From Escherichia coli (lineage in GTDB: Bacteria; Pseudomonadota; Gammaproteobacteria; Enterobacterales; Enterobacteriaceae): a stretch of DNA of 64,000 nt. Positions 9,801 to 12,800 of the stretch are shown in pieces. Made by a program: the position numbers. Location of the stretch: assembly GCF_003334355.1 (NCBI RefSeq), contig NZ_QOWP01000001.1. One strand, given 5' to 3'. Positions within the stretch are counted from its first letter, which is position 1. Every line of letters starts with the position of its first letter.

Positions 9801-12800
9801 CGCAGTGTTATCGGTCTGTGTCATATCCAGAGCGGCATCAACGTTAGCCGTTACAGTGATATCCTTTTGTACTGCTAATGCGGAGCCTGCAACAGAAAAC
9901 ATCGCTGCGACCAGAAGAGATTTTGCAAATACCTTTTTCATTACTATTCCTTCGTTTATTATAATGATAATTAATGGACCGCCAGTTCAAACTCGCCATT
10001 ATCTTTGGTGATCCAGTTATTATATTTGACAACGATTTTGTCGTAGCCAGATATGCTTTCAAGATTTCTTTCCTGACCAGGGAAGATATTTTTATTTACA
10101 GTCTGTATCTTACAATTTTCTTTGCTATTATTTTTACAATAAGCGATCGTTAAAATCTTTAAGCGTTGATTCCCTGCATTAACTAATTTTTGGGCAGCAT
10201 TTACTTCTAACTTAGCAATAGGTTGCTGAGGTGGGACACTAACAACAATCCCCCAAATTAAGTTAACTGTTAACTGCATAGAGAGATCTTTTTTATCCGT
10301 GGCAACGTCATCAATACTGGGAACCGCTTCAAATTTAACGCGATAATTTTTTTCTTTTTGCTCTGGTTCCATTGCAACAAAGCGCACAGTCTTACTGCTA
10401 CCCGCTGGCAGCGCAAACTTAGGCGGCATCACTACAAGATGAGTGGCATCTCCGGATTTTATTTCAACTTCCTGCTCTTGAGGCGTTGAAGGATTATCAA
10501 TACGAAATACCGTCGCTTTTATATATTGAACTTCATTACTTTTAGATATTACGCGAACGTTACCTTCCCCCTGACTATTAATGGAAACAGCCATAGGATA
10601 AACAGTCATATTTGACTGTGCAAAAAAAGGAGCGAACACGAATAAAAGCGGCGTAAGCCGTGATAAGAGATTAATTTTCGCCACCATATAGATTTGATCT
10701 TACAATATTGATTCAAAAAAGTTAGTGCATTAGATGTGTATATTTATTGTAAGTCAACATGAAAAAGTATTTTTAGTTAATATTAAATTTAAAAGCGAAA
10801 AATTAACTTACTGAAATATAGCAATTTTCACAATAGAGACACTTCATTTTTAGGAATTTATAAATATTCACAATCTTGATTAAATACATTATTTCAATCA
10901 TCAAATTTATATATCAACAATGGCATACCCATAAATAAAGTGGTATGATAACTTTGTCCGCATTCCACTCCGGGAGACGCATATGGAAATCACTGAACCA
11001 CGCCGTTTGTATCAACAACTTGCCGCTGACCTGAAAGAGCGCATCGAACAGGGCGTCTATCTGGTGGGTGATAAACTGCCTGCCGAGCGCTTTATTGCCG
11101 ATGAAAAGAACGTCAGCCGTACGGTAGTTCGTGAAGCCATCATCATGCTGGAAGTTGAAGGCTATGTCGAAGTGCGTAAAGGTTCAGGTATTCATGTAGT
11201 TTCCAACCAGCCGCGCCATCAGCAGGCGGCTGACACTAATATGGAATTCGCTAATTACGGTCCGTTTGAGTTACTTCAGGCTCGCCAGCTCATCGAAAGT
11301 AATATTGCCGAGTTCGCAGCAACTCAGGTAACGAAACAGGACATCATGAAATTGATGGCCATCCAGGAGCAGGCGCGAGGCGAACAATGCTTCCGTGATT
11401 CCGAGTGGGATTTGCAGTTCCATATTCAGGTAGCCCTGGCGACGCAGAACTCCGCCCTGGCGGCTATCGTTGAAAAAATGTGGACCCAGCGTAGCCATAA
11501 CCCGTACTGGAAAAAACTGCACGAACACATTGATTCCCGTACCGTCGATAACTGGTGTGATGACCACGATCAAATCCTCAAGGCGCTGATTCGCAAAGAT
11601 CCTCATGCTGCTAAGCTGGCAATGTGGCAGCACCTGGAAAACACCAAGATCATGTTATTCAACGAAACCAGCGACGACTTCGAGTTCAATGCCGACCGTT
11701 ATCTGTTCGCCGAAAACCCGGTGGTGCATCTCGATACAGCCACCAGCGGCAGTAAATGAAATTCCTGTCCGACAGGCGCTGCAATGCGCCTGTTTGTCTC
11801 GTCGGTAAGCGAAAAGTATAAAGTGTCAGCCTGTGTAAATCCTCTCGCCACCCTCCCCTGCATTCAGCAAAATCAGACTCCACGGACATGTAATTTTGAT
11901 AACGAACAACGTTGACCTTTGTTACAATTAGATTCAATTTGAATTTATGTTTTTGAATGCTTTCTTATCTCACGATTTAACAGGGAATAGTTCAGGCTGT
12001 GTTGATGTATCAAACCCGCAGAACATACCAAAACAGCAATAACATTGCGGTAGTGCATCTTTTAAAACCAGCGTGGCGTTAACCGATTCACCAGGAATAA
12101 TGAATGGAACTTTTGACCCAATTGCTGCAAGCCCTGTGGGCGCAGGATTTTGAAACCCTGGCCAATCCATCGATGATTGGCATGTTGTATTTTGTCTTGT
12201 TTGTAATTTTGTTCCTTGAAAACGGCTTGCTTCCGGCGGCCTTTTTACCGGGCGACAGTTTACTGGTATTGGTCGGCGTGTTGATTGCGAAAGGCGCGAT
12301 GGGCTATCCGCAAACGATTCTGCTGCTGACCGTTGCCGCCAGCCTCGGCTGCTGGGTCAGCTATATTCAGGGGCGATGGCTGGGCAATACCCGCACCGTA
12401 CAAAACTGGCTATCTCATTTACCCGCGCATTATCATCAACGCGCACACCATCTTTTTCATAAACACGGTTTATCGGCGCTGTTAATTGGTCGCTTTATTG
12501 CGTTTGTCAGAACACTGCTGCCGACGATTGCCGGGTTATCAGGGCTGAATAACGCGCGCTTTCAGTTTTTCAACTGGATGAGCGGTCTGCTGTGGGTATT
12601 GATCCTGACAACTCTGGGTTACATGCTCGGCAAAACGCCGGTATTTTTAAAGTACGAGGACCAGCTGATGTCATGCCTGATGCTGCTCCCGGTGGTGCTG
12701 CTGGTGTTTGGCCTGGCAGGTTCTCTGGTCGTGTTATGGAAAAAGAAATATGGAAATCGGGGGTAAGGGATGCAAATACCTCGCATGTCGCTTCGCCAGC

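Follow-up and report, generated by a model that had tools for sequence, protein, structure and literature searches.

The window analysed here, a stretch of 64,000 nucleotides (64 kb) of Escherichia coli DNA, contains a fimbrial operon, eafABCD, which is preceded by a markedly AT-rich region and is not accompanied by a regulator gene, raising the question of how this operon is controlled. The eaf operon as such is already known in E. coli; its control region has been unstudied until now. We consider it probable, though far from assured, that the AT-rich tract constitutes the promoter/regulatory region of eafABCD at the right end of a horizontally acquired cassette of 5.4 kb, that it is silenced by H-NS and that expression of the operon depends on a host factor. 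The features concerned are the following:

5540..10936, no strand assigned: eafABCD ("CS1-like") accessory island, comprising the alpha-fimbrial operon and its regulatory region (5.4 kb, 43.8% GC)
5581..6669, minus strand: tip adhesin gene (CfaE/CblD/TcfD-like, 362 aa), from ORF, RefSeq, NCBIfam and orthologue
6666..9368, minus strand: usher gene (TcfC-like, 900 aa), from ORF, RefSeq, NCBIfam and orthologue
9441..9941, minus strand: major pilin gene (CS1-type/CblA/TcfB-like, 166 aa), from ORF, RefSeq and NCBIfam
9971..10687, minus strand: periplasmic chaperone gene (TcfA-like, 238 aa, 38.5% GC), the first gene of the operon, from ORF, RefSeq and NCBIfam
10688..10936, no strand assigned: AT-rich regulatory tract (249 bp, 78.7% A+T), the island-derived part of the divergent eaf-exuR intergenic region
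10983..11759, plus strand: exuR, encoding the GntR-family hexuronate repressor, the divergent neighbour, from ORF and RefSeq

Identity between K-12 and the window runs to ...GGCGGCTT (window position 5539) and K-12 homology returns at AAAGTGGTAT (10937), the insertion point of the island lying between the exuT terminator and the exuR promoter. The island is carried by 1,904-1,910 of 5,426 complete E. coli genomes, while K-12, ETEC H10407 and EAEC 042 are all without it. The locus was named by Archer et al. 2011 (PMC3032704) and Oshima et al. 2008 (PMC2608844), and the eafABCD or "CS1-like" cluster of these authors and of Wurpel et al. 2013 (PMC3559732) is the same four-gene locus at the same exuT-exuR site. 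According to these three papers the cluster is present in strains W, ATCC 8739, HS, SE11, E24377A, 536 and SMS-3-5 and missing in K-12, B and O157. All three are gene catalogues which do not describe promoter region, composition or regulation of eaf, and a literature search by locus tags, "eaf" names and tcf regulation returned nothing on eaf regulation. Carriers include commensals, non-O157 STEC, ETEC and ExPEC; some ETEC strains (H26, H27) possess the 100% allele of the island. The same four-gene cassette occurs at five other chromosomal sites in eight other genera or species; it is located at exuT/exuR in Escherichia, between gyrA and ubiG in Yokenella and at ycgB/fadR in Kluyvera.

The four genes, which all lie on the minus strand, follow one another in the order chaperone, major pilin, usher, tip adhesin, as in the alpha (class 5 or alternate chaperone-usher) layout. 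The four proteins match the NCBIfam models TcfA, CblA/TcfB, TcfC and TcfD with E values of 1e-30 to 1e-164, all under the equivalog cut-offs (chaperone versus TcfA: E = 7e-41, 140 bits, cut-off 500), and the orthologues carry the Pfam domains PF04449, PF16967, PF17271 and PF07434, of which PF04449 is found in the pilin orthologue. The chaperone is 31-37% identical to CfaA/CooB, and the Eaf proteins are nearer to Tcf/Cbl than to CS1. Tcf (tcfABCD) of Salmonella enterica provides the top NCBIfam match for all four Eaf proteins and shares the gene order chaperone-pilin-usher-adhesin; since the scores stay far under the Tcf cut-offs, however, Eaf is to be regarded as a homologue of Tcf rather than as its orthologue. 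Moreover, tcf occupies a different chromosomal site, in SPI-6 beside tinR (PMC10373206), whereas eaf has no neighbouring regulator. The E. coli W paper (PMC3032704) states that the cluster has no tip adhesin; contrary to this, gene 4 matches TcfD/CfaE here. This tip adhesin gene is hypervariable, its alleles being 72-81% identical at nucleotide and 71-77% at amino acid level. In contrast, the pilin is 100% identical in amino acids between two allele classes at 97.2% nucleotide identity, which indicates purifying selection; the chaperone shows 98.7% amino acid at 94.0% nucleotide identity and the usher 98% amino acid identity. The conservation of pilin and usher across alleles argues for a functional eaf operon. 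About a third of complete E. coli genomes have an intact eaf operon, which is under purifying selection.

The sequence-only reading had described the region upstream of the chaperone gene as strikingly AT-rich and devoid of ORFs, and both statements hold. With 21.3% GC versus 49.4% in the window, positions 10688-10936 deviate far beyond chance: no other 249-bp stretch of the 64 kb has a lower GC content, and 0.03% of such stretches reach so low a value. Counted in 100-bp windows, as that reading had proposed, the GC content from 10701 to 10950 amounts to 20-22%, and the minimum over 200 bp within the tract is 19.5%. The ORFs overlapping the intergenic region are only eight in number, 20-36 aa long and attributable to chance, and an Rfam search gave no match for this region. 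Less apt was the designation of the stretch as a leader: the chaperone gene (minus strand) and exuR (plus strand) diverge from an intergenic region of 295 bp, and the stretch is a divergent promoter region shared with exuR which is not mainly transcribed, as the best-conserved promoter would leave only about 35 nt of it in the transcript. A putative long 5' UTR displays no significant RNA structure (z = -0.36). The low GC content is maintained at 21-23% in six E. coli alleles which are 12-26% apart in sequence (74-88% identity), and in comparisons of distant alleles W-to-W transversions outnumber every other class of substitution. Upstream of the cassette, seven other genera have 30-40% GC, the GC content of the locus being 49-55% where measured. 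The eaf tract (21% GC) also exceeds in A+T content the 300 bp which precede cfaA of ETEC CFA/I (35% GC).

Horizontally acquired and with an A+T content far above average (21.3% versus 49.4% GC), the tract has the composition of a xenogeneic promoter. Its 200-bp minimum of 19.5% falls below the GC content of agaI/yraH (20.5-21.5%), yhaC (24%) and tdcA/tdcR (25.5-28.5%), three regions of the same window which are bound by H-NS in K-12 according to ChIP-chip (PMC3661553, Table 1). H-NS binding depends largely on base composition, yet some AT-rich regions stay unbound, and DNA curvature is a weak predictor of binding (PMC1550270). The H-NS high-affinity motif TCGATAAATT is represented by three 8/10 matches and none better, which is as much as composition alone gives; likewise, composition accounts for its density, which is 6-fold the window average. 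H-NS silences the promoters of class 5 and other chaperone-usher operons (PMC5554520, PMC6392122, PMC3559732). In non-O157 STEC, CS1-like transcripts are raised together with those of other chaperone-usher operons, most of which are H-NS-regulated according to the authors (PMC6033998), this comparison being confounded by gene presence (15 versus 12 strains). The same study detects CS1-like transcripts in wild-type STEC in defined medium; any silencing must therefore be incomplete. Our literature search returned neither direct H-NS occupancy data nor expression data from an hns mutant for eaf, and ETEC H10407 and EAEC 042, to which H-NS or AggR/CfaD data sets refer, belong to the strains without the island. 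A close parallel is offered by the cryptic chaperone-usher operons of K-12, e.g. agaI/yraH ahead of yraHIJK (PMC3661553; Korea et al. 2010 as cited in PMC3559732), which are accessory, have no dedicated activator and possess an upstream tract of about 20% GC, as does eaf. The yra tract lies in the same window (53484-53883); yra belongs to clade gamma1 and eaf to the alpha clade, and H-NS binding is documented for yra but only deduced for eaf.

H-NS silencing of the eaf tract is plausible. The tract and the AT-rich chaperone gene would nucleate filaments of H-NS (and StpA), by which RNA polymerase would be kept away from, or held at, an eaf promoter that is weak in itself, so that under laboratory conditions the operon would be mostly silent. 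Its expression would require an anti-silencer or activator encoded by the core genome, probably acting via conserved upstream blocks, and in the great majority of carriers this factor would not be Rns, CfaD or AggR. Expression of exuR, whose -35 adjoins the tract, may be touched by this H-NS complex as well. Silencing of an AT-rich foreign promoter by H-NS and its relief by a host factor are textbook matter and would surprise no specialist. What the locus adds as starting points for the study of eaf regulation are the boundaries of the control region, a conserved candidate promoter and an upstream element shared across genera, to which the following features belong:

10752..10757, minus strand: candidate -35 TTGACT of the proximal eaf promoter, conserved in alleles, predicted only
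10729..10734, minus strand: candidate -10 TCTAAT, 17 bp from the -35, conserved in alleles, predicted only
10888..10917, minus strand: distal promoter-like site TTGATA-18-AATAAT with an upstream TG, 10/12 in the consensus scan, a weak candidate
10848..10874, minus strand: conserved block A, ATTGTGAATATTTATAAATTCCTAAAA (TGTGAAT-N8-ATTC within), from the allele alignment
10826..10834, minus strand: conserved block B, ATTGTGAAA, direct repeat D1, kept in the alignments
10805..10816, minus strand: conserved block C, TTTCAGTAAGTT, from the allele alignment

Seven Escherichia alleles retain a promoter-like pair TTGAC(T/A)-17-T(C/T)TAAT about 35 nt ahead of the start codon. TTGACT is part of a run TTGACTT which, like TCTAAT, is invariant across six E. 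coli alleles, while Escherichia sp. EC7003 has TTGACA and TTTAAT; in every Escherichia allele this pair is the highest-scoring -35/-10 combination. Transcription from this proximal promoter is predicted to start near 10722, corresponding to a 5' UTR of about 35 nt. The pair thus represents a candidate sigma-70-like core promoter with a strong -35 and a defective -10, the latter having been passed over by the consensus scan because its position 2 is not A. Two other weak promoter candidates are present, namely the distal TTGATA/AATAAT and a TACAAT; the distal site would yield a 5' UTR of about 190 nt, and its -35 varies in other alleles (TTCATA, GTCATA, TTAAAA). Transcription starts alternative to 10722 would be expected at ~10797 and ~10881. 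Promoter-like sites occur at the expected frequency (3 found versus 2.9 expected) in our simple consensus scan; a "promoter island" is defined as an excess of overlapping promoter-like sites by PlatProm (PMC3661553).

Three conserved blocks lie about 85-150 bp above the candidate core promoter. Within block A the runs TTGTGAAT and ATTCCTAAAA are invariant, and E. fergusonii and Yokenella both have a 12/12 match to TTGTGAAT-N8-ATTC, equally far from the start codon (0/300 shuffles); Yokenella and Kluyvera have 21/22 nt of the block A element in common. Block B, which lies 40 bp downstream of block A, contains TTGTGAA for the second time. The run TTTCAGTA of block C is invariant in all seven Escherichia alleles, and strings resembling block C are found upstream of the K. 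michiganensis and E. mori cassettes, the pairwise match alone being not significant. The consensus of ArgR is TGAAT-N4-ATTCA and the RcsAB box reads TAAGAATATTCCTA; compared by eye, half-sites of the ARG and RcsAB boxes can be made out in block A, but they are wrongly spaced. Equally, a by-eye comparison with the consensus sequences of CRP, IHF and ArcA led to no assignment. Of the TTCCT box, which we take to be the motif of EcpR/MatA, a single TTCCT is present.

Silencing by H-NS has to be weighed against a simpler reading, according to which the tract is UP-element or spacer DNA of an ordinary AT-rich promoter with low constitutive or growth-phase-dependent transcription and without any H-NS/anti-silencer circuit. 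Usher and pilin transcripts in wild-type STEC in defined medium (PMC6033998) are in line with it, as are the existence of AT-rich DNA which H-NS leaves unbound (PMC1550270) and a density of promoter-like sites which is not raised (3 versus 2.9 expected). However, the composition of the tract is more extreme than that of the documented H-NS-bound regions in the window, the conserved -10 (TCTAAT) is defective, which argues for dependence on a factor, and all comparable chaperone-usher or class 5 promoters studied are repressed by H-NS (PMC3559732, PMC5554520, PMC6392122), making an unsilenced promoter the less likely solution, albeit one to be taken seriously. If, on the other hand, the operon were a cryptic, decaying remnant, the AT-richness would merely reflect mutational drift upstream of disused genes. 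The authors of the E. coli W genome thought that the cluster was unlikely to function (PMC3032704), and IS1, IS2 and IS5 insertions are found within the leader or operon of some genomes, among them a natural IS1 insertion at 10915-10924. Yet about 1,900 genomes have the four genes in intact form, the tip adhesin gene included, pilin and chaperone bear the mark of strong purifying selection described above, and neither promoter hexamers nor upstream blocks vary between alleles, this invariance extending in part to other genera; decay strikes us as very improbable.

Two further readings involve the following features:

10758..10769, minus strand: best Rns-core match TACTTTTTCATG (9/12 to TATTTTTTTATC) in the core scan, abutting the candidate -35, without TATC motif
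10699..10707, plus strand: inverted repeat left arm CTTACAATA, at chance level, not conserved, inside the predicted 5' UTR
10745..10753, plus strand: inverted repeat right arm TATTGTAAG, overlapping the end of the candidate -35 and the promoter spacer

The sequence-only reading had noted that the island has no AraC-family gene. Indeed, the island consists of the four fimbrial genes only, the annotated 64 kb are without any such gene, and tblastn with Rns and MarA found nothing in the 64-kb window; furthermore, there is no linked regulator in the island or inside the cassette of any relative examined (eight other genera or species). The contrast drawn to the ETEC class 5 operons was nonetheless overstated, as rns itself resides on a different plasmid from the CS1 operon (PMC2579436), and CS1 coo, CFA/I cfa, CS17, CS19 and PCFO71 resemble eaf in alpha-fimbrial layout, AT-rich promoter region and non-adjacent regulator. 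A plasmid-borne AraC-family activator of the Rns/CfaD/AggR type might bind by the -35 and displace H-NS. A proximal Rns site has at least 67% identity to TATTTTTTTATC on the coding strand, abutting the -35 (PMC2579436), with a second site expected on the noncoding strand some 70 bp farther upstream (near -109.5). The 9/12 match TACTTTTTCATG adjoins the candidate -35 on the coding strand, where the site is also placed at CS1, CS17, CS19 and PCFO71 (PMC2579436), but matches to the Rns core are rarer than in shuffles (8 versus 13.6 at ≥8/12; 2 versus 2.9 at ≥9/12), and no match of ≥8/12 exists on the noncoding strand between 10780 and 10900 where the distal site would be sought. The two-site Rns architecture of class 5 is thus absent at eaf, which is also chromosomal whereas class 5 operons are plasmid-borne. 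AggR-type sites (WWWWWWWTATC, 21-23 bp upstream of the -10, with A at position 2 of the latter) are degenerate and readily gained by AT-rich promoters (PMC6392122), and the SCPM-O-B-8794 allele alone has the canonical layout TTAATATTATC-N23-TACAAT; the window allele lacks a W7-TATC box 21-23 bp from a usable -10, as TTAATATTAAC has TAAC. DNA resembling rns, cfaD, aggR or csvR occurs in 203 genomes, compared with 1,910 that carry the island; at least 89% of the carriers are therefore without an rns-family gene. Neither the 64-kb window nor the first 50 kb of plasmid pPSS-12_1 contains one. An Rns-type activator cannot be the general regulator of eaf, which removes the most obvious guess, and even with the 100% allele present in some ETEC strains we deem activation of this type quite improbable.

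A phase-variable switch, be it a fim-like invertible element bounded by a 9-bp repeat or a Pap-like Dam/Lrp methylation switch, is scarcely conceivable. fimS likewise has 9-bp inverted repeats, and the repeat noted in the sequence-only reading does exist (10699-10707 / 10745-10753, arms 37 nt apart) and flanks part of the candidate eaf promoter. It does not rise above chance, however: it is one of 19 inverted pairs in a low-complexity tract, and when the sequence is shuffled with its dinucleotides preserved, a perfect 9-mer inverted repeat with a loop of 3-100 nt turns up at least once in 39% of the shuffles (52% with any loop). In the SCPM-O-B-8794 allele one of the two arms has been lost by deletion, and alleles of the ~77% class carry mutations in both. 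Chance-level frequency and lack of conservation rule the repeat out as regulatory element or switch. Moreover, it encloses 37 bp only, in place of the promoter element of about 300 bp and the linked tyrosine recombinase of fim-type systems, and no aligned allele was seen in inverted orientation. The island has no recombinase, papI or papB-like gene, and in place of the two GATC sites about 100 bp apart which characterise Pap-type switches, the eaf-exuR intergenic region contains a single GATC at 10696.

Within the preferred reading of an H-NS-silenced control region, the conserved blocks invite a more far-reaching conjecture, which we regard as rather unlikely but worth stating. TTGTGAAT-N8-ATTC and blocks B and C might form the operator of a core-genome factor of Enterobacterales which serves as dedicated anti-silencer of a regulator-less, mobile Tcf-like cassette, the element travelling with the cassette between sites and genera, and the silenced tract, being adjacent to exuR, might in addition rewire hexuronate regulation in the third of E. 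coli that carries the island. The promoter-like site of exuR is the following:

10920..10949, plus strand: exuR promoter-like site ATGGCA-18-TATGAT (TG-extended), predicted by the consensus scan

Its -35 is situated in island DNA and its -10 in core DNA, on either side of the K-12 junction at 10937.

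K-12 identity stops at window position 5539, just past the terminator stem of exuT, and restarts at AAAGTGGTAT (10937). Positions 5540-10936 therefore represent a 5.4-kb insertion, whose right junction coincides with the end coordinate (10936) assigned to the AT-rich leader by the sequence-only reading. The island, also missing from K-12, is absent from ETEC H10407 and EAEC 042. The window is E. coli chromosome, 100% identical to strain PSS-12 across 7 kb. The operon genes, as annotated in RefSeq, and their neighbour are:

9971-10687, minus strand: gene 1, fimbrial chaperone, 238 aa
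minus strand: gene 2, CS1-type major subunit (pilin), 166 aa
minus strand: gene 3, TcfC-like usher, 900 aa
5581-6669, minus strand: gene 4, CfaE/CblD tip adhesin, 362 aa
10983-11759, plus strand: exuR, divergent neighbour of the chaperone gene

This 'CS1-like' operon has already been described in SE11, E24377A, HS, ATCC 8739, 536 and SMS-3-5 (PMC2608844), and 10688-10936 is the promoter/regulatory region of the known Tcf-type operon eafABCD, divergently shared with exuR. A literature search for the regulation of eafABCD gave no paper on the subject. In the E. coli W genome paper the tip adhesin is said to be missing from eafABCD (PMC3032704). Gene 4 (5581-6669), however, matches TcfD (NCBIfam) and its orthologues contain PF07434 (CfaE_2nd); contrary to that account, the adhesin is therefore present.

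The AT-richness noticed by eye is indeed extreme, as the tract 10688-10936 exhibits 21.3% GC versus 49.4% in the window, the lowest value among all 249-bp windows; in 100-bp windows GC amounts to 20-22% from 10701 to 10950. The tract is also free of genuine ORFs, those overlapping it being of chance size (20-36 aa). It has no match in Rfam, and folding of a hypothetical 212-nt leader RNA is no better than that of shuffles (z = -0.36). Leader GC stays at 21-23% across the six E. coli alleles despite their divergence and is 28% in one cryptic-clade Escherichia, and W-to-W transversions form the largest substitution class in comparisons with distant alleles; composition is thus more conserved than sequence.

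The intergenic region occurs in 1,922 of 5,426 complete E. coli genomes (coverage of at least 80% in 1,910) and falls into three main identity classes, of at least 99% (221 genomes), ~91% (1,445) and ~77% (233).

Nucleotide identity per segment between the window and representatives of the ~91% and ~77% classes
Flanking core genes: 95-99%
Usher and pilin: 89-97%
Chaperone: 80-94%
Intergenic region: 74-88%
Tip adhesin: 72-81%

Compared to a ~91% allele, the pilin is 100% and the usher 98% identical in protein. The operon is therefore under purifying selection and not a decaying remnant. The tip adhesin (5581-6669) is hypervariable (71-77% aa identity between alleles versus 94-100% for usher and pilin), a pattern that points to diversifying selection or to recombination in the receptor-binding subunit. 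In strain 81 (locus L006, 3365-4133; window 10915-10924) an IS1 with a 9-10-bp target duplication separates the eaf leader from the exuR promoter, and IS1, IS2 or IS5/ISKpn26 are located within or beside the operon in other genomes. The E. coli plasmid record NZ_MG591698.1 (353 kb) encodes a chaperone 98.7% identical to the chromosomal one in the window and may be either misassembled or a large segment derived from the chromosome. E. coli-type eaf chaperones (84-89% aa) also turn up in a MAG contig assigned to 'Lachnospiraceae', in a contig of 426 bp from 'Bradyrhizobium sp. RP6' and as a protein under the name of Streptococcus pneumoniae (L013, L018 and P0073), probably through contamination or mis-binning of public assemblies.

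Phylogenetic footprinting of the leader across six E. coli alleles revealed 131 invariant columns out of 249 and eight invariant runs of at least six bases, including TTGACTT (10757-10751), TCTAAT (10734-10729) and AACTTTTT (10723-10716). The top-scoring -35/-10 pair in every Escherichia allele is TTGACT-17-TCTAAT, its counterpart in Escherichia sp. EC7003 being TTGACA-17-TTTAAT; transcription from it would start near 10722, leaving a 5' UTR of ~35 nt. TCTAAT was not listed by the consensus scanner because position 2 of this -10 is not the consensus A, and the defective predicted -10 suggests that the eaf promoter is weak and factor-dependent. A second, distal candidate, TTGATA-18-AATAAT, reaches 10/12 in the window; its -35 is unconserved across alleles. 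Three conserved strings lie upstream of the candidate promoter:

10874-10848: block A, ATTGTGAATATTTATAAATTCCTAAAA
10834-10826: block B, ATTGTGAAA, 40 bp downstream of block A
10816-10805: block C, TTTCAGTAAGTT

E. coli and E. fergusonii both carry a 12/12 match to TTGTGAAT-N8-ATTC, placed at -186 relative to the start codon, and Yokenella has one at -189 (seen in 0 of 300 shuffles); 21 of 22 nt of the block A element are common to Yokenella and Kluyvera. Its versions read TTGTGAATATTTATAAATTCCTAAAAAT in E. coli and E. fergusonii (window 10848-10874), TTGTGAATCTAAATTTATTCTGAAATAT at equal distance from the start codon in Yokenella (L015, ~6788-6815) and ACATCTAAATTTATTCTTAAATAT in Kluyvera (L026, ~5760-5782). 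The remaining upstream DNA of cassettes outside E. coli is not significantly similar to that of E. coli; that block A recurs while its surroundings do not argues for a constrained cis-element, the single feature of the locus deserving follow-up.

In these other genera the four-gene cassette, with chaperones 46-55% identical, occupies differing chromosomal sites.

Flanks of the cassette outside E. coli
Yokenella, Citrobacter: gyrA-ubiG ... nrdA
K. michiganensis, K. oxytoca, Enterobacter mori: lysR ... ygeA
Kluyvera: ycgB ... fadR
Edaphovirga: gor
Enterobacillus: aqpZ ... fumA

The occurrence of one cassette at different housekeeping sites (loci L015, L016, L017, L023-L028) implies that it moves as a unit, with no obvious mobility genes. 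None of the relatives examined carries a dedicated regulator gene flanking the cassette, the flanks being housekeeping genes; the lysR of Klebsiella and Enterobacter adjoins lysA, as in other enterobacteria, and is presumably the housekeeping regulator of lysA. Upstream regions of the relatives' cassettes have 30-40% GC, with a locus GC of 49-55% where measured. The Edaphovirga cassette comprises five genes with two adhesin paralogues, and a resolvase gene lies downstream of that on Salmonella contig L027.

The lack of an AraC-family gene extends to the entire 64 kb, where none is annotated (the regulators being ExuR, YhaJ, TdcA, TdcR, AgaR and PrlF) and tblastn with Rns and MarA is negative. 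While the absence of a linked activator thus stands, the contrast drawn with ETEC does not, as in ETEC CS1 strains rns resides on a plasmid other than that of the coo operon (PMC2579436), eaf being likewise without linked activator. Dependence on an Rns-like regulator finds no support. The Rns core TATTTTTTTATC is matched less often than in shuffles (8 vs 13.6 at 8/12 or better; 2 vs 2.9 at 9/12 or better), and the best one, TACTTTTTCATG, adjoins the candidate -35 and lacks TATC. In the window allele neither a second Rns site 70 bp upstream nor the W7-TATC-N21-23-(-10) layout of the AggR/Rns rule (PMC6392122) is found, TAAC being present instead. Moreover, rns/cfaD/aggR/csvR-like DNA occurs in 203 genomes versus 1,910 with the island, so that at least 89% of carriers are devoid of an rns-family gene. 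The SCPM-O-B-8794 allele (L012) harbours a canonical AggR/Rns-type TTAATATTATC-N23-TACAAT ~74 nt before the chaperone start; since its TATC differs from the TAAC of the window by one base, responsiveness to Rns or AggR could be allele-specific.

The 9-bp inverted repeat pointed out in the leader does exist (10699-10707/10745-10753), but the region has 19 inverted pairs in all and this one is noise: a perfect 9-mer inverted repeat arises in 39% of dinucleotide-preserving shuffles with a 3-100 nt loop (52% with any loop), and one allele has lost an arm by deletion, both being mutated in another allele class. A fim-like invertible element is excluded by sequence, as the repeat encloses only 37 bp, is unconserved and no recombinase gene is present in the island; so is a Pap-like Dam/Lrp switch, given a single GATC in the intergenic region and no papI/papB gene in the island.

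The predicted silencing by H-NS is plausible only from composition and analogy. AT content largely sets H-NS binding, with some AT-rich regions unbound (PMC1550270). Promoters of the class 5 and AggR types are repressed by H-NS, as are many cryptic chaperone-usher operons of commensal E. coli (PMC5554520, PMC6392122, PMC3559732). A compilation of K-12 ChIP-chip studies (PMC3661553 Table 1) lists agaI/yraH, yhaC and tdcA/tdcR, all among the lowest-GC stretches of the window, as promoter islands bound by H-NS; their 200-bp GC is 20.5-28.5% versus 19.5% for the eaf tract, the lowest. By position, extreme low-GC stretches of the window other than the eaf tract include 17043-17242 (yhaH/yhaI intergenic, 22.5%), 33417-33616 (inside yhaC, a frameshifted pseudogene in PSS-12; 24%) and 53691-53890 (agaI/yraH, 20.5%), upstream of the yraHIJK fimbrial operon, which is missing between agaI and rsmI in EAEC 042. 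In non-O157 STEC, CS1-like usher/pilin transcripts were up alongside Yra, Ybg, Yfc, Yqi-like, type 1 and F9 operons, in a comparison confounded by gene presence (15 vs 12 strains), and hns expression in the strain group with raised transcripts was slightly, non-significantly lower; the comparison also shows that any silencing of eaf is not absolute (PMC6033998). We consider it rather probable that a conserved, intrinsically weak sigma-70 promoter is embedded in an H-NS-prone tract and that unlinked core-genome factors would control it via the conserved upstream blocks, as expected for horizontally acquired fimbrial operons.

On the opposite side, the island has apparently remodelled the exuR promoter (10915-10982). 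The predicted exuR -35, ATGGCA (10920-10925), falls in island DNA, and identity to K-12 is only ~72% over the 46 bp from the junction (10937) to the start codon of exuR, the coding sequence being ~97% identical between alleles; carriers and non-carriers of the island may therefore differ in how exuR is regulated. AAAGTGGTAT, kept at the junction and overlapping the exuR -10, resembles an ExuR/UxuR operator half-site. In the whole window GATC occurs 274 times, a count reached by 0 of 100 dinucleotide-preserving shuffles (230 +/- 13).
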